Of a DNA stretch of 25,586 nucleotides, positions 1 to 19,248 are shown piece after piece. The notes under the pieces are model-generated. The model worked only from the letters and a program-made list of their open reading frames with translations. It was not told where the DNA came from and searched no databases. Made by a program: the position numbers and the translations under genes. The stretch is from a virus: the UHGV virus genome UHGV-0108017; one strand, given 5' to 3'. The first letter of the stretch is position 1. Every line of letters begins with the position of its first letter.

Positions 1-54
1 CATATTGGTCATAGCGCTATCCTTCACGGCTGCATTATATAAAGAGGTAAATCA

Positions 55-67
55 TTTGATACTGCTG
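55..67 (+). repeat. left-end repeat copy 1 (TTTGATACTGCTG), candidate transposase-binding site L1
   Basis: 13-bp motif recurs at 159-171 and 201-213 in direct orientation; followed by AAAAATCCGGG, reminiscent of the Mu L1 region as recalled. Confidence 0.5.
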
Positions 68-158
68 AAAAATCCGGGAGGAAAGTGGATCAAACGGGAT
101 TTGATGGGATAAAACAAACAGTTATGACGTAAAACAGTGTTATGCGCACAACATGTGA

Positions 159-171
159 TTTGATACTACTG
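159..171 (+). repeat. left-end repeat copy 2 (TTTGATACTACTG), candidate transposase-binding site L2
   Basis: Exact 13-mer shared with 201-213; 104 bp from copy 1, close to the Mu L1-L2 spacing as recalled. Confidence 0.5.
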
Positions 172-200
172 TCGCAAAGAAAGCTAAAAACGAAAAAATA

Positions 201-213
201 TTTGATACTACTG
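201..213 (+). repeat. left-end repeat copy 3 (TTTGATACTACTG), candidate transposase-binding site L3
   Basis: Exact 13-mer identical to copy 2; 42 bp downstream of it, close to the Mu L2-L3 spacing as recalled. Confidence 0.5.
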
Positions 214-239
214 ATTTCTGCGATTTTAACGTTTTAAAC

Positions 240-281
240 AGGTTAAAAAACCAGCCGCGGGCTATTGGAATTAGCCCGCCT
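240..281 (-). terminator. putative rho-independent terminator of the repressor transcript
   Basis: 8-bp stem GCGGGCTA (257-264) / TAGCCCGC (272-279) with 7-nt loop; on the minus-strand RNA the hairpin is followed by a UUUUUU run (plus-strand A-run 245-250). Stem overlaps the stop codon at 271-273. Confidence 0.45.
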
Positions 282-855
282 TCGATTCTAAACTACTTGA
301 GAGTTTATCGCTTTCAATTTCTGCCAAAATCTCTCTAACTCTTTCATCCGATAAATGATCTAAAAGTAGAGCTGCTGCACGTTTTCGTCCTTCAAGTTGG
401 ATTAGTTCTTGATTCTCTGGTTCAAGTAACCGTGACAAGTACTTAGCTCCATTTAGCGCGAGGATTTTTGATAATCGCTCTGCCTCTGATGCTTCTAAAG
501 CACTTAGTATAGCAAGAAGGCGCTGTAGCGTTATATCTAGGGGCAATTGGACGTTTTCATCTATTTTAGGTGATATTGGTTCTATATCCTCCTTGCCAAA
601 AACAAGCCAATCAATGCTCACCCCTTCTGCAAAAGCAATCTGACCAGCTACTTGTAGAGATGGTGTCGCATCTTTCTCAAAGTAGTTGTTAAGTGTTGAG
701 AACGGTAGCCCCCACGCCTTCGCCACGGCAGTCTTGGAGCGCCCGCGCATTAACATGGCTAGGCGCTCTTTAATGCTTTCTTTTTGAAACACAGGAAAAG
801 AAAAATCACTTTCTTTTTCAGTGCTTCTTTCTTTTCTGTTAACTATATGATTCAT
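271..855 (-). CDS. prophage repressor (Mu c-like by position), HTH DNA-binding protein
   Basis: Only leftward gene, divergent from ner at the left end. Start taken at ATG 853-855 (MNHIVNRKER...); the ORF-track start at 906 is a GTG. HTH-like segment SKTAVAKAWGLPFSTLNNYF. GC much lower than the rest of the window. Confidence 0.6.
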   Translation of the reverse strand: MNHIVNRKERSTEKESDFSFPVFQKESIKERLAMLMRGRSKTAVAKAWGLPFSTLNNYFEKDATPSLQVAGQIAFAEGVSIDWLVFGKEDIEPISPKIDENVQLPLDITLQRLLAILSALEASEAERLSKILALNGAKYLSRLLEPENQELIQLEGRKRAAALLLDHLSDERVREILAEIESDKLSSSLESKAG

Positions 856-995
856 AAAGAAATATCCTTTTGTAGATAAAAACCACCAAAGAAAGAGATA
901 AAACACCTTTACTTTTCTTTTGTAGTGATCAAATATTTATATGTAGAGATTATCCGGCGGTGTTATCCGCGCAGATAACTTTTAAGGATAAACGA
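856..995. promoter_or_regulatory. divergent early promoter / operator region between repressor and ner
   Basis: Repeated TGTAG(A/T)GAT motifs (871-879, 921-929, 942-950), 18-bp near-palindrome GTTATCCGCGCAGATAAC (962-979), IHF-like GATCAAATATTTA (927-939). Confidence 0.55.
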
Positions 996-1232
996 ATGAT
1001 GTCTATAAATGAAGTTGTTAAACAGGACTGGCACCCCGCGCATGTTGTCGCGGCGGTGCATGTAAAAGGTTTTACTTTACGCTCTCTGTCCATTGAAGCC
1101 GGTTTAAACCAGGATTCTTTAAAGAATGCCCTGTACCGCAAATGCCCAAAATATGAGCGCATTATTGCTGATGCTATTGGTGTTGCTCCGGAGGAGATCT
1201 GGCCCAGCCGTTACGCTCGTAAGGTGGTATAA
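996..1232 (+). CDS. ner: Ner-like DNA-binding early regulator
   Basis: ATG 996 with AAGGA 8 nt upstream. Recognisable Ner/Nlp signature (DWHPAHVVAA...GFTLRSLS...IIADAIGVAPEEIWPSRY). Stop overlaps the RBS of A. Confidence 0.8.
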   Translation: MMSINEVVKQDWHPAHVVAAVHVKGFTLRSLSIEAGLNQDSLKNALYRKCPKYERIIADAIGVAPEEIWPSRYARKVV

Positions 1233-1234
1233 AA

Positions 1235-3322
1235 ATGTTTGTATCAGTTAATGAGCTTGTAGGGCTACCAGGTATGCCGGGAACTGCGCAAGGGGTGCGG
1301 TATTCCATAAGGAAACTGGCCTCATCTGAGCATTTCAGGCGCAAACGTGCGGGTTCAAAAACCATTGAATACAGCATCGACTGCCTCCCTCCGATTACAC
1401 AACGGGCGTTACGTGAGCGACATGTAGCTCAACTGATGGCAAGCGCCCCGCAGGAGATAACTACCCAGCCTCCTGTAAAGCGTGAACGCAAACAAAATGT
1501 TGTACAGCCTGTTGAGGCATATCGCGGTTCGCCACAATTGGTAGAAGAGCGTCTGAATGCGCTTACGGAAAATCAACGTAAAGTTGCAGAAGCGCGCATT
1601 GCTCTTGTCTGTGAAGTTCTACGAATTAGCCAGGAGCCGGGATTCAGTTGTGCCAGCGCTATACGTTTTATTGTGTCGCGGTTAGCACAGGGTAACCTGG
1701 AAGAACGCCTGGAATCTTTGGTCATTACTGCTAATGCCCGTAAAGGAAAAGAGCGAACTCTGAGCGCAATTACGCTCAAACGTTGGATAGCTGCGTTTAA
1801 CAAAGCACAGAATGCCGCAGAACGACTGCTGTTACTGGCACCAGGAAAGCGCGACGAAATAAAACCGGAAGAAATTAGCTGGCTGCCTGAATTTCTGGCG
1901 CAGTATCGTCAGGCTAACGGCAGGCCTATGTCTGAAGCCTATGAGGATTTTGTCGCTGATTGGCAGCGTCGCCATGCGGACGAACCATACATGCTGGAGG
2001 TGATGCCTTCCTATGATGTTGTCCGGTATGCCATGAAAAAACTGCCGGAAGTGGTGAAACAAAAAGGGCGCGTTACCGGCAGTGAATACCGTCAGCTTGA
2101 AGGATTCACCCGCCGCGACTGGACAGCTATGCCGGTGAATTATGTCTGGATTGGTGACGGTCACGGTATGAAGCTGAAATGTGCGCATCCGGTTCACGGG
2201 CGTCCATTTTCACCGGAAGTTACGTTTGTGATCGACGGTGGAACCCGGTTTGTGGTTGGCTGGAGTCTTGATCTTGCGGAGAACGTGTTCGCTGTTGCCG
2301 GGGCGATACAACACGGCATTCGCAATCATGGAAAACCATTCCTGTATTACTCGGATAATGGTTCCGGTGAAACGGCAGATATGCTGGATAAAGAGATCGT
2401 CGGGATTCTGCCCCGTCTGGGGATTAACCACCCCACCGGTATTGCGGGAAATCCGCAGGGACGCGGCATTATTGAACGCCTGAACCGAACATTACCGATG
2501 CGTATAGCCAGGAGGTATCGCACCTATTTCGGCAAGGGTGCTGACCGGGAATCGTTGCGAGTACTTAATCGTGATCTGCGTTCAGCGTTTAATGCCCTGC
2601 AACAGGACAAGCCACTGAGCGCCCGTCAGAAAGCCGCAATGCGCGAGCTGCCGTCCTGGTCAGAACTGATTGAGGCTATCCGTGAGGGGGTGGAGTGGTA
2701 CAACAACCGCCCACATTCTGAATTGCCGATGAAACCAAACGGAAAGCATTACAGCCCGGCAGAGTTCAGAAAAAAACGCTTAGCGGAAGAAGACACTGAA
2801 ATTGAGTGGCTGAGTGATCTTGAGCTGCGCGACATGTTCCGCCCGATGGTGGAGCGTCCGGTAAGACGCTGCGAAATCCAGTGGCTGAACAATATTTACT
2901 ACGCGCCAGAGCTGCGTGATGAACATGGTCGCAAAGTACTTATCAGCTATGACATTCACGATGCCGAGCGAATTACGGTACGCCGTAAGGACGGTAGCTT
3001 TATCTGTGAGGCGATATGGAACGGCAATAAACGCGCAGCCTTTCCTGTCACGGCTGAATATCACAAACAACAGCAGCGTATTAAAGGCATGCGCAAGCGT
3101 GCTGAGGAAAAAATTCGTGATGCAGAGGATGAAGGTATTCAGATTCTGGAACACAAACAGGCTGAACCCTGGCTGGATAATGTTTATCGCCCGGTTGGTA
3201 ATACGGTAACCATCCGGCAACAGGATTATGAGGAAGATTACGACGAAGATTATGAACGCGATTTCAGGCTGGGTTTGCAAAAACTTGCAGCCATACAGGA
3301 ACAGGATGATCCGCTGGCCTGA
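1235..3322 (+). CDS. A: DDE transposase (MuA-like)
   Basis: 695 aa immediately after ner. N-terminal winged-helix-like region resembling MuA; candidate catalytic residues D308 (WIGDGH), D375 (YYSDNGSGE), E414 (IIERLNR) by inspection. Confidence 0.85.
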   Translation: MFVSVNELVGLPGMPGTAQGVRYSIRKLASSEHFRRKRAGSKTIEYSIDCLPPITQRALRERHVAQLMASAPQEITTQPPVKRERKQNVVQPVEAYRGSPQLVEERLNALTENQRKVAEARIALVCEVLRISQEPGFSCASAIRFIVSRLAQGNLEERLESLVITANARKGKERTLSAITLKRWIAAFNKAQNAAERLLLLAPGKRDEIKPEEISWLPEFLAQYRQANGRPMSEAYEDFVADWQRRHADEPYMLEVMPSYDVVRYAMKKLPEVVKQKGRVTGSEYRQLEGFTRRDWTAMPVNYVWIGDGHGMKLKCAHPVHGRPFSPEVTFVIDGGTRFVVGWSLDLAENVFAVAGAIQHGIRNHGKPFLYYSDNGSGETADMLDKEIVGILPRLGINHPTGIAGNPQGRGIIERLNRTLPMRIARRYRTYFGKGADRESLRVLNRDLRSAFNALQQDKPLSARQKAAMRELPSWSELIEAIREGVEWYNNRPHSELPMKPNGKHYSPAEFRKKRLAEEDTEIEWLSDLELRDMFRPMVERPVRRCEIQWLNNIYYAPELRDEHGRKVLISYDIHDAERITVRRKDGSFICEAIWNGNKRAAFPVTAEYHKQQQRIKGMRKRAEEKIRDAEDEGIQILEHKQAEPWLDNVYRPVGNTVTIRQQDYEEDYDEDYERDFRLGLQKLAAIQEQDDPLA

Positions 3323-3323
3323 A

Positions 3324-3360
3324 TAAAAAACAGTCCGCGGGAACGGACTGTTAAGTAAAG
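3324..3360 (-). terminator. hairpin between A and B; intrinsic-terminator geometry on the minus strand only
   Basis: Perfect 8-bp stem ACAGTCCG (3330-3337) / CGGACTGT (3344-3351), 6-nt loop; preceded on + by AAAAAA, so the minus-strand RNA has hairpin then U-run. No U-tract on the + strand. Confidence 0.4.
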
Positions 3361-3394
3361 GAAACAAAGCTGATTTGAATAAACGGAGAATAAT

Positions 3395-4327
3395 ATGACC
3401 GATATTAATGATGTTTTCAACACAATTAATGCGCTGATTACTGACGGTGTAAAAACACAAAGCGCTATCGCCAAAGAAGCTGGCGTGTCGGAGGCCACTC
3501 TTTCTGAACTTCGCAAAGGCCGTTACAAAGGCGATACCGAAGGGATGCACAACAAATTACTGATGTGGCATCAGGGCTGGCAGAAAAGTCTGGAGTTGCC
3601 CGGCACCCCACAACTTGTGGAAACACAGACCCTGCGTGATTTGCGTGAACTTTTTCAGACAGTGCGTGTTATGGGGTGTATCAGCGTTCTGGTGGGTGTG
3701 CCGGGGGTAGGAAAAACCGTTGCGGCCCGTGAATACAGTAACCGCGTATCTAATACCTGGATGGTAACCCTTTCCCCTGCACACTCAACGGTGACGGAAT
3801 GTCTGCTGGAACTGGCAGACGCGCTGGGAATTGATAACCCGCAAAGGAATAAAGGCGCGCTGACCCGTGCCATTCGCAAAAAACTGAACGGTACACGCGG
3901 TCTGGTGATTGTGGATGAAGCTGACCACCTGAGCATTGACGGGCTGGAACAATTACGTGCCATTCAGGATGCCACCGGAGTCGGGATGGTATTGATTGGT
4001 AACCCCAGTCAGTTAGCCAAAGCCACACATCGGGGAACGGATGACCTTGCACGTTTGTTCAGTCGTTTCGCCAGGACAAAGCAACTACGTAAAGCCAAAA
4101 AGGCTGACGTGGTGGCAATTGCGAAAGCCTGGGGCATTGAGGGCGAAGATGAATTATCACTCATGCAGAGCATCGCGGAAAAGCCAGGCGCATTGCGTGT
4201 ATTAACTCACACGCTGAATCAGGCGTGGCTGGCAGCCAGCGGGAAAGGCGTTCCTCTGTCCAAAGGCTACATAAAAGCGGCTTTTAAAGAGGTTTACAGC
4301 AACCCGAAATTACTGAACTGGTGGTAA
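3395..4327 (+). CDS. B: transposition ATPase / target DNA activator (MuB-like, AAA+)
   Basis: 310 aa; Walker A GVPGVGKT (K107) and Walker B LVIVDEADHL seen in translation; N-terminal HTH-like region; sits directly after A as in Mu. Confidence 0.85.
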   Translation: MTDINDVFNTINALITDGVKTQSAIAKEAGVSEATLSELRKGRYKGDTEGMHNKLLMWHQGWQKSLELPGTPQLVETQTLRDLRELFQTVRVMGCISVLVGVPGVGKTVAAREYSNRVSNTWMVTLSPAHSTVTECLLELADALGIDNPQRNKGALTRAIRKKLNGTRGLVIVDEADHLSIDGLEQLRAIQDATGVGMVLIGNPSQLAKATHRGTDDLARLFSRFARTKQLRKAKKADVVAIAKAWGIEGEDELSLMQSIAEKPGALRVLTHTLNQAWLAASGKGVPLSKGYIKAAFKEVYSNPKLLNWW

Positions 4328-4341
4328 GGGGATAATAAATA

Positions 4342-16199: not shown

Positions 16200-17499
16200 T
16201 CTGGCGTATGCCGCACGCCTCCCGCCAAAGGAGGCTGTCGCGTATTTCCGCGCCAAAGGCTACAACATCACCTGGAACTGGTACGAACAACTGGCAGACG
16301 CGCACGCCCGCGCCTTTACCGTTGCCAAAGCCACCCGGATGGATGTCCTGACCACAATCCGTGAGGAAGTGGAGCGGGCTGTCAGTGAAGGCATCACCCG
16401 TGAGGAATTTACCCGCACACTGGCCCCCCGGCTGCAAAAACTCGGATGGTGGGGAAAACAAATCATCGTGGATGCAGAGGGAAACGCAAAGGTAATCGAG
16501 CTGGGCAGTCCGCGTCGTCTGGCAACCATTTATAACGTCAATACCCGTACGGCGTATGGGGCAGGACGTTATGCGCAGATGATGAATACCGCAGATTTGT
16601 ATCCGTACTGGCAGTATGTTGCCGTTATGGATGGCAGAACACGCCCGGAACATGCGCGGCTGCACAATATGGTTTTCAGGTATGACGACATTTTCTGGCA
16701 GACGCATTACCCGCCCAATGGCTGGAACTGCCGCTGTCGCGTCCGGGCGGTGTCTGCGGCCCGCATGAAAGAACTGGGGCTACAGGTCAGTTATGGTGCG
16801 TCATTCATGAACACCCGCGAAGTGGATGCCGGTACGGATGAAAGCACCGGAGAGATTTTCCGCACATCGTCAACCACATTTGACAACGGTCGGGTAAAAA
16901 TGACGCCGGATGTAGGCTGGTCATATAACCCTGGTTCGGCGGCATTTGGTACGGATCAGGCACTGATTCGAAAACTGGTGGAAATTCACGACGCGCAGCT
17001 GCGTGAGCAGGTTGTGCAGACACTGAATAACAGCCGGGAGCGTCAGCTTGCTTTTTCCCTCTGGCTTAAACGCCTGGCAGGATCACGTCAGGCCGGTCAT
17101 GAAATCCGGGCGCTGGGTTTTATGACGGGATCCGTGGCTGAAGCCGTATATCAGCGCACCGGGAATATGCCAGCCCGTTTGCTTGTAATGAACGGGAAAA
17201 GTCTGGCGACCACTGCTGATGCCGCCCTGAAACCGGAAGATTTACAGCGTCTGCCGTCGCTGATGGCAAAACCACAGGCGGTATTGTGGGACAGGGAGAA
17301 CCACCAGTTGCTGTATGTTGTGGCAACCCGCGACGGCACTGCAAAAGTTGTGGTCAGAACATCGCAGGCTGTCAGCAAACAGAATGACCGGGCGGATGTG
17401 CTGGTCAGTATCAGCCGCGTATCTGCACTGTCGCTTGAAGCCGCGATTGCTGACGGGATGATTGACATACTGGAGGGGCATGTGGAGGTGAATAAGTGA
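16180..17499 (+). CDS. F: head morphogenesis protein (Mu F / gp30-like)
   Basis: Motifs resembling the Mu F family (RTRPEHARLHNMVFRYDD...PPNGWNCRCR); ATG 16180 preferred over the GTG at 16144. Confidence 0.75.
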   Translation: MPQQTIDLAYAARLPPKEAVAYFRAKGYNITWNWYEQLADAHARAFTVAKATRMDVLTTIREEVERAVSEGITREEFTRTLAPRLQKLGWWGKQIIVDAEGNAKVIELGSPRRLATIYNVNTRTAYGAGRYAQMMNTADLYPYWQYVAVMDGRTRPEHARLHNMVFRYDDIFWQTHYPPNGWNCRCRVRAVSAARMKELGLQVSYGASFMNTREVDAGTDESTGEIFRTSSTTFDNGRVKMTPDVGWSYNPGSAAFGTDQALIRKLVEIHDAQLREQVVQTLNNSRERQLAFSLWLKRLAGSRQAGHEIRALGFMTGSVAEAVYQRTGNMPARLLVMNGKSLATTADAALKPEDLQRLPSLMAKPQAVLWDRENHQLLYVVATRDGTAKVVVRTSQAVSKQNDRADVLVSISRVSALSLEAAIADGMIDILEGHVEVNK

Positions 17500-17966
17500 G
17501 TCTTGATATGAACGTTGCCGTGGATGTGCGACGTATTCAGCTTGCACTGGATGAACTGGGAACCGTTACACGTGACCGCGCCATTCCCCGTGTGATGGCT
17601 GCGGCGCTGCTGTCATCCACGGAACAGGCATTTGAACGGCAGGCAGACCCGGATACAGGGAAAGGCTGGGAAGCGTGGAGCGATTCGTGGCTGGCATGGC
17701 GTCAGGATCATGGTTTTGTTCCGGGCAGTATCCTTACCCTGCATGGCGATCTGGCACGCAGCATTACCACCGATTATGGACAGGATTATGCCCTGATTGG
17801 TTCGCCAAAAATTTATGCTGCCATTCATCAGTGGGGCGGTACACCCGATATGGCACCCCGCCCGGCAGGCGTTCCTGCGCGTCCTTATATGGGGCTGGAT
17901 AAGACCGGGGAACAGGAAATTTTTGATGCCATCAGAAAACGCGTCAGCACCGCTCTGAGGCAATAA
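17496..17966 (+). CDS. G: virion morphogenesis protein (Mu G-like)
   Basis: GTG start 5 nt after GGAGGTG; 156 aa; position between F and I. Confidence 0.65.
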   Translation: MSLDMNVAVDVRRIQLALDELGTVTRDRAIPRVMAAALLSSTEQAFERQADPDTGKGWEAWSDSWLAWRQDHGFVPGSILTLHGDLARSITTDYGQDYALIGSPKIYAAIHQWGGTPDMAPRPAGVPARPYMGLDKTGEQEIFDAIRKRVSTALRQ

Positions 17967-18162
17967 ACAGAATCAGGCATAAAATCAGCCGCACAGATTT
18001 TTTAAAACGCGCCACGGGATTTTTAAACCGGTATTTAACGGTGTATGAATCCCGTTTTATCTTCCTTCCACTTTCTTTCTCCAGTACTCAAATAGCATAA
18101 CCCCAGATTTTCCCGCACCTCCCGCAAACTGACTGCTCATAAACCATGATGAGCAGCAGGAC
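17967..18162. promoter_or_regulatory. G-I intergenic region: candidate late promoter (P_I) and candidate strong gyrase site
   Basis: 196-bp non-coding gap, unusually long for this genome. Inverted repeat ACGGGATT (18015-18022) / AATCCCGT (18049-18056); direct repeats GATTTTT(T)AAA; ATAACCCC and TCCCGCACCT (18111-18120). Confidence 0.45.
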
Positions 18163-19248
18163 ATGAAAAAACACGCGATTGGCATTGCCGCACTGAGTGC
18201 GCTGTCCATTGACGATGACGGCTGGTGCCAGCTATTGCCTGCCGGTCATTTCAGTGCCCGTGATGGTCGTCCGTTTGATGTGACAGGCGGTCAGGGGTGG
18301 TTCATCGACGGTGAGATTGCCGGGCGTCTGGTTGAAGGCGTTCGCGCGCTCAACCAGGACGTGCTGATTGATTACGAGCATAACCAGCTACGTAAGGACA
18401 AAGGATTACCCCCGGAACAACTCGTCGCGGCTGGCTGGTTTAACGCCGATGAAATGCAGTGGCGTGAAGGTGAAGGATTATTTATCCACCCACGCTGGAC
18501 GGCGGCGGCCCAGCAGCGCATCGATGACGGCGAATTTGGTTATCTCTCTGCGGTTTTTCCGTATGACACCGACACCGGTGCAGTGCTGCAAATCCGCCTT
18601 GCTGCGCTGACCAATGACCCCGGTGCCACCGGCATGAAAAAGCTGACCGCACTGGCGGCAGACCTTCCCGACATCCTTCAACAGGAGAACAAACCCATGA
18701 ATGAAACGCTGCGCAAGCTGCTTGCGCGTCTTGGGGTGACGGTCCCCGAAAATGCAGACATCACCGATGAACAGGCCAGCGCGGCCCTGAGTGCGCTTGA
18801 TGCGCTCGAAACAGATGCCGGAAAAGTGGCGTCGTTATCCGCCGAACTGGAAAAGGCACAGAAAGCCGCCGTTGACCTGACGAAATACGTCCCGGTGGAA
18901 AGCTACAACGCCCTGCGTGATGAACTGGCACAGGCGACTGCACAAAGCGCCACAGCCAGCCTGAGCGCCGTTCTGGACAAGGCGGAACAGGAAGGCCGCA
19001 TTTTCAAAAGCGAACGCACTTACTTGGAACAGCTTGGCGGTCAGATTGGCGTGGCGGCACTGTCGGCACAGCTTGAGAAAAAACAGCCCATCGCTGCGTT
19101 ATCTGCCATGCAGACCACCACAGCGAAAATCCCGTCGCAGGAAAAACCGGCGGTGGCGGTGCTGTCTGCTGATGAACAGGCAGCAGTGAAGGCGCTCGGC
19201 ATTACTGAGGCTGAGTATCTGAAAATGAAACAGGAACAAGAAAAATGA
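18163..19248 (+). CDS. I: prohead protease / scaffold (Mu I-like)
   Basis: 361 aa; N-terminal region resembling the Mu I protease family; Ala/Glu/Gln-rich helical C-terminal half consistent with a nested scaffold domain. Confidence 0.75.
   Translation: MKKHAIGIAALSALSIDDDGWCQLLPAGHFSARDGRPFDVTGGQGWFIDGEIAGRLVEGVRALNQDVLIDYEHNQLRKDKGLPPEQLVAAGWFNADEMQWREGEGLFIHPRWTAAAQQRIDDGEFGYLSAVFPYDTDTGAVLQIRLAALTNDPGATGMKKLTALAADLPDILQQENKPMNETLRKLLARLGVTVPENADITDEQASAALSALDALETDAGKVASLSAELEKAQKAAVDLTKYVPVESYNALRDELAQATAQSATASLSAVLDKAEQEGRIFKSERTYLEQLGGQIGVAALSAQLEKKQPIAALSAMQTTTAKIPSQEKPAVAVLSADEQAAVKALGITEAEYLKMKQEQEK

Follow-up and report, generated by a model that had tools for sequence, protein, structure and literature searches.

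The G-I intergenic region of a mosaic Mu-like prophage is nearly identical in sequence to the Mu control region, with the strong gyrase site, the late promoter P_I and a predicted terminator

The DNA analysed here, referred to as the window, is a stretch of 25,586 nucleotides of the virus genome UHGV-0108017, which judged by its sequence is a Muvirus prophage. Its sequence from position 4330 on shares about 98% identity with Mu, D108, SfMu and several Mu-like phages of Yersinia pestis, and the locus of interest lies in this part of the window, between two genes transcribed in the same direction:

17496-17966, plus strand: gene G (virion morphogenesis or neck protein), an open reading frame matching Pfam Phage_tail_S (E = 1.5e-42), with 99% identity to Mu gene 31/G
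17967-18162: the non-coding G-I gap, 196 bp from the stop of G to the start of I
18163-19248, plus strand: gene I (head maturation protease or scaffold), an open reading frame matching Pfam Mu-like_Pro (E = 1.6e-97), homologue of Mu gene 32/I

With G ending at 17966 and I starting at 18163, these boundaries agree with the non-coding gap of 196 bp described in an earlier reading of the bare sequence (the original prediction), which had likewise reported no open reading frame of consequence. Plus-strand frames of at least 20 aa are indeed absent inside 17967-18162, and the minus strand holds only mechanical frames of 23-50 aa that overlap the flanking genes or the promoter. The gap had furthermore been called AT-rich, which is true to a moderate degree and no more, its GC content being 0.44 against 0.52 for the window. 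Over the 1.3 kb centred on the gap the identity to Mu, D108, SfMu and related phages amounts to 98.5-99.8%, and the alignment to Mu has a coordinate offset of +107 (window minus Mu) and shows 2 substitutions among the 196 bases of the gap, at 18068 and 18140, both of them outside the gyrase site described below. A further substitution near the gap, at 17949, lies in G and changes an Ala of the Mu protein into Thr.

[quoted passage not shown] The end of G and the adjoining part of the gap match this site:

17919-18051, no strand assigned: strong gyrase site, equivalent to the 133-bp Mu SGS fragment (131/133 identical)
17986^17987, no strand assigned: putative top-strand gyrase cut, placed by adding the offset of 107 to Mu 17879^17880 (NC_000929, AF083977)

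The 133-bp fragment is given in a supplementary table and was used for gyrase binding and Topo-Seq (Sutormin et al., PMC6379681). What the original prediction had put forward as a candidate strong gyrase site, with alignment to the Mu SGS as a check, goes beyond mere resemblance, since by alignment the element is a near-identical copy of the experimentally defined site: identity is 99% over the G-I region, 131 of the 133 bases match the published fragment, and the core and the right arm are identical to GenBank Mu. The element is, as far as its sequence tells, the already known SGS of Mu, accompanied by the known promoter P_I and a predicted terminator, and as it has already been characterised in Mu, the word 'candidate' understates what is known.

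The two mismatches to the published fragment fall at 17949, in the left arm, and at 17988. pMP1000, the template of that fragment, carries the nuB up-mutant SGS (PMC6463007), and the window keeps the wild-type base of Mu at 17988, where the pMP1000-derived fragment differs. A prophage of E. coli RM8082 has ATCACCCGC in place of ATCAGCCGC in the cleavage core, homologous to 17988, and carries there the same base as pMP1000 (nuB). By homology to Mu, a 4-bp stagger is predicted at 17987-17990 (AGCC). The layout reported for the Mu site consists of a left arm of ~40 bp, a core of 50 bp and a right arm of 60 bp, the latter footprinted from +26 to +85, with phased bending signals and with its first 40 nt being essential, and the fragment binds gyrase with exceptional affinity (PMC6463007); the left arm has been reported to be dispensable (PMC10052514). 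Because the 133-bp fragment maps to 17919-18051, the SGS straddles the stop codon of G, with ~48 bp in G, including the left arm, and ~85 bp in the gap, the centre of the site being 20 bp past the stop. The earlier placement of the gyrase site in the gap thus holds for the cut and the right arm, but the site begins inside G and the right-hand 40% of the gap belongs to P_I and the leader of I. Counted from the cut, the essential stretch of the right arm corresponds to ~18014-18053, which is exactly the inverted repeat to be described below. The right arm does not vary among nine Mu-group sequences, the differences between which cluster in the 20 bp around the cut. A count of matches to the published 133-bp consensus, made either by exact base or by strong-weak class, was also tried as a gyrase score and was rejected as uninformative, as it favours GC-rich coding DNA: the SGS ranks at the 81st-95th percentile, according to strand and measure, and GC-rich coding DNA ranks highest, a middling result for the SGS that is explained by the consensus being 69% GC.

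The core and the right arm of the site share a repeat pattern:

17992-18038, no strand assigned: phased T-tract/A-tract repeats (direct repeat family D1), with CACAGATTTTTTAAAACG and CACGGGATTTTTAAACCG 21 bp apart and TATTTAA 12 bp further on

The direct repeats pointed out in the original prediction are found as described, GATTTTTTAAA at 17996 and GATTTTTAAA at 18018, and are part of an 18-nt repeat spaced 21 bp, the copies of which occupy 17992-18009, in the SGS core, and 18013-18030, in the right arm. From one T-to-A junction to the next the three T-tracts are 21 and 12 bp apart, which is close to two helical turns and one, and three TTTRA motifs at this 21/12 spacing occur once in the window, both strands included, against 0.007 expected per 25.6-kb window from 300 first-order Markov simulations, and once in the whole 36.7-kb genome of Mu. 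The 10-11 bp AT periodicity of the right arm furthermore ranks at about the 99th percentile of the window. The pattern also recurs in three diverged Mu-like prophages, those of E. coli SE11 (73% DNA identity), an Enterobacteriaceae MAG (70% aa identity in G) and Citrobacter braakii (55% aa identity in G), where it is found once per locus, on the same strand and just past the G stop, with spacings of 20-21 and 11-12 bp despite the drifted sequence. The G-I gap of these loci is ~200 bp long, with three or four phased TnRAA tracts that start ~35-45 bp past the G stop, and the loci of SE11 and the MAG also carry the core motif AATCA(C/G)(G/C)CGC, as does the window. When the four sequences are aligned, the columns that do not vary in the right arm are those of the T-tracts and of AA. 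The comparison with the diverged prophages indicates that it is the phasing of the T-tracts, and not the sequence as such, that selection has maintained, in agreement with the published bending model, according to which the right arm is helped to wrap on the GyrA pinwheel by phased bending signals (PMC10052514, PMC6463007, PMC11626157), and by analogy the T-tracts in the right arm described here may act as such bending signals.

The site of the window nonetheless belongs to the Mu-identical class and not to that of the diverged loci, which are at most ~73% identical to it. Most of the SGS-like sites of diverged Mu-like prophages tested by Oram and Pato (2004) could not replace the Mu SGS, as far as the account of that work in PMC10052514 goes. 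The strong sites of pSC101 and pBR322 and the Topo-Seq motif (Sutormin et al. 2019) have a footprint of ~130 bp with central cleavage and flanking arms of ~10.5-bp AT/GC periodicity. The right arm in the window shows periodicity as in the Topo-Seq gyrase motif, without sequence homology to the pSC101 and pBR322 sites, and when placed at the centre of Mu these two plasmid sites gave no support of Mu replication (PMC10052514).

The essential part of the right arm coincides with a potential RNA hairpin:

18014-18060, plus strand: inverted repeat I1 (hairpin) followed by TTTTATCTT, identified by folding and by TransTermHP in Mu, inside the essential SGS right arm
18015-18060: terminator predicted by TransTermHP, annotated in the Mu record at Mu 17908-17953

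The inverted repeat ACGGGATT / AATCCCGT noted in the original prediction exists, but had been placed one base off, its true arms being 18014-18021 and 18048-18055, and it extends to arms of 20 nt that are 80% complementary. The 8-bp repeat is by itself weak evidence, since a perfect one arises in 6.5% of shuffled gaps, and it is the fold of the larger hairpin that is better than most shuffles, with an RNA folding energy of -19.8 kcal/mol (z = -2.9; 3 of 200 shuffles are as good). The stem is interrupted, encloses 26 nt and is followed by UUUUAUCUU. Going by the folding energy and by the software prediction in the Mu record, the hairpin with its U-rich tail probably ends the lys-G late transcript. 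A simple promoter and terminator scan of the gap returned no terminator and no sigma-70 consensus promoter, as is to be expected with a C-dependent promoter and with a hairpin of long loop, which the scan missed on account of its loop limit of 8 nt. A hairpin at this place is clear in the window and in Citrobacter; SE11 has one that folds no better than shuffled sequence, and that of the MAG is unconvincing.

The right-hand part of the gap corresponds to P_I, the C-dependent late promoter of Mu that was reportedly described by Margolin, Rao and Howe in 1989:

18071-18157, plus strand: late promoter P_I, activated by the Mu C protein, assigned by Mu homology and by the match to the I-promoter oligonucleotide
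18084-18150: late promoter feature of the Mu record (Mu 17977-18043)
18096-18104, plus strand: C-box CATAACCCC, which aligns with the box of Plys, PP and Pmom
~18125-18131, plus strand: -10 region of P_I
~18137-18140, plus strand: P_I transcript start, deduced from the 20 nt that the oligonucleotide is stated to hold downstream of the start
18151-18153: ribosome-binding site of I, from the Mu record (Mu 18044-18046)

The 92-mer I-promoter oligonucleotide, stated to extend 20 nt past the start (PMC4461284), aligns with 18071-18157, the single mismatch being at 18140. The promoter annotated in Mu is identical here at 66 of its 67 positions, and the C-box lies at the same distance from the start codon of I. 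At 18140, which is at about +2 to +3 of the transcript, the window has T where Mu has C, and a local inverted repeat thereby grows from 7 to 8 bp. The box ATAAcCcC is common to all four Mu late promoters (P_I, Plys, PP and Pmom), and P_I in the window has, by its sequence, what is expected of a late promoter, namely a C-box some 40 bp ahead of the start and a weak -10, without a -35. The gene of the activator, C, is also present, within the stretch with 98% identity to Mu. With the SGS footprint reaching to ~18073 and P_I beginning at 18071, essentially no DNA of the gap would be left unexplained. Very probably, then, the G-I gap is the orthologue of the Mu G-I control region, holding three known elements within 196 bp, and we found no datum that contradicts this reading. 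What was computed here are the identities, the positions, the anatomy of the repeats and the persistence of the phased pattern among diverged relatives; that gyrase binds and cleaves, that replication is affected and that the promoter is active is taken over from the literature on Mu.

The site is housed in a mosaic prophage, in which the repressor, ner, A, B and the left end are not those of Mu:

271-906, minus strand: repressor of the CI/HTH_3 type
1235-3322: transposase A, 22% identical to MuA, with a Mu transposase domain
3395-4327: protein B, 44% identical to MuB, with a MuB domain

These genes belong to an early module for immunity and transposition at 31-4330, and a search of the window for the left-end sequence of Mu gave no match. 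Two Yersinia phages, vB_YpM_5 and vB_YpM_6, carry the same early module, as do several E. coli prophages that are inserted at different places. The left end of the prophage lies at ~31-37, matches to prophages at other chromosomal sites beginning at 32-43, and the first 30-36 bases of the window are host chromosome flank and not prophage. About half of the complete E. coli genomes match a short piece somewhere in the query at 99% identity or more. The flanking genes of the SGS are the same as in Mu, and the putative cut is ~17.95 kb from the left end, the corresponding distance in Mu being 17.88 kb. The right end is beyond the 25.6-kb window, and the position at the genome centre, which the original prediction had assumed, is therefore unreadable from the window itself. 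In a full-length relative that shares the early module, the prophage inserted in ydcO of E. coli 1290, the homologous point is at 49.4% of a length of 36,075 bp. As the transposase is only 22% MuA-like and the ends differ, we infer rather than observe that the SGS serves this module; by analogy with Mu it would likely cooperate with this non-MuA transposition module as well.

The gap might instead be an ordinary spacer between two operons, consisting of the lys-G terminator and the I promoter, with gyrase having no special role in this prophage. Such a spacer would account for the U-tailed hairpin, which folds better than shuffles and is a predicted terminator in the Mu record, and for the right-hand part of the gap, which is a bona fide late promoter, but it leaves unexplained both the identity at 131 of 133 positions to a fragment of exceptional gyrase affinity and the fact that the three phased T-tracts persist where the hairpin is not conserved. 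That the transposase is not MuA-like, and that dependence of this module on the SGS is a matter of extrapolation, may also be taken in its favour; gyrase is however a host enzyme that reads DNA and not the transposase, and the identical sequence should therefore be bound equally well in an E. coli host. We hold the spacer to be a very improbable explanation. Even harder to credit is that the gap hides a small RNA, for which an Rfam search of the gap gave no family at E <= 1, or a small protein gene like '31.5' of D108, a CDS of 42 aa annotated at the homologous position, since the frame 17972-18100, although open in the window, starts on ATC and lacks ATG, GTG and TTG as start codons in its first part, no gene is annotated at this place in Mu or PhiR68_1, the diverged relatives carry indels across the frame, and the DNA is already accounted for by the SGS, the terminator and the promoter. 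A homologue of '31.5' at 17972-18100 was rejected on these grounds, having no canonical start and not being conserved, and '31.5' of D108 is itself probably an annotation artefact.

If the gap is the orthologue of the Mu G-I control region, host DNA gyrase would bind with the segment ~17970-18005 at its DNA gate and cleave at 17986^17987, and the right arm (~18014-18073) would wrap around the C-terminal pinwheel of GyrA, in line with the cryoEM structure, in which the right arm is wrapped on one pinwheel and presents the T-segment (PMC11626157). The phased T-tracts of the right arm would ease the wrap and fix its register, and it is proposed that gyrase would for this reason supercoil very processively and so extrude a plectonemic loop, the apex of which is the SGS. 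With the site in a probably central position, this loop is further proposed to bring both prophage ends together at its base, and the pairing of the ends would speed up assembly of the transpososome and replicative transposition after induction. Deletion of the SGS delays Mu replication by ~100 min and central placement is optimal, off-centre placement being worse (PMC10052514), and the paired-end prophage domain requires the SGS (PMC3820752). The retention of a Mu-identical SGS in natural mosaics whose transposase, repressor and ends are very different is in keeping with a site working by way of the host enzyme and DNA topology rather than through transposase contacts. The main value of the present analysis lies in a correct annotation, and no new principle is implied. 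A tentative extension, which we consider possible but rather doubtful, is that the 40-50 bp of 18014-18060 are dual coding, serving both as the DNA wrapped around the GyrA pinwheel and, when transcribed, as the hairpin that terminates the 7.5-kb lys-G late operon; the end of this heavily transcribed operon would then have been set deliberately on the gyrase site, and the SGS would moreover be independent of transposase lineage.

A few minor features are found around the start of the I transcript, the leader of which is ~25 nt long up to the start codon:

18133-18156, plus strand: perfect 8-bp inverted repeat I4, CTGCTCAT N8 ATGAGCAG, straddling the P_I start just upstream of the I ribosome-binding site

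As RNA this segment has a folding energy of -15.7 kcal/mol (z = -6.0), and the inverted repeat is kept in SE11 with one mismatch. Its candidacy as a leader hairpin is nonetheless weakened, since the P_I start falls in the 5' arm and that arm is largely upstream of the start; with the stem straddling the putative start in this way, the full fold would form only in read-through transcripts. The leader region also contains a six-codon upstream frame at 18146-18166, ATG ATG AGC AGC AGG ACA TGA, the stop of which overlaps the start of I (ATGA) and which may be incidental. In SE11 a one-base insertion brings the upstream ATG in frame with I.
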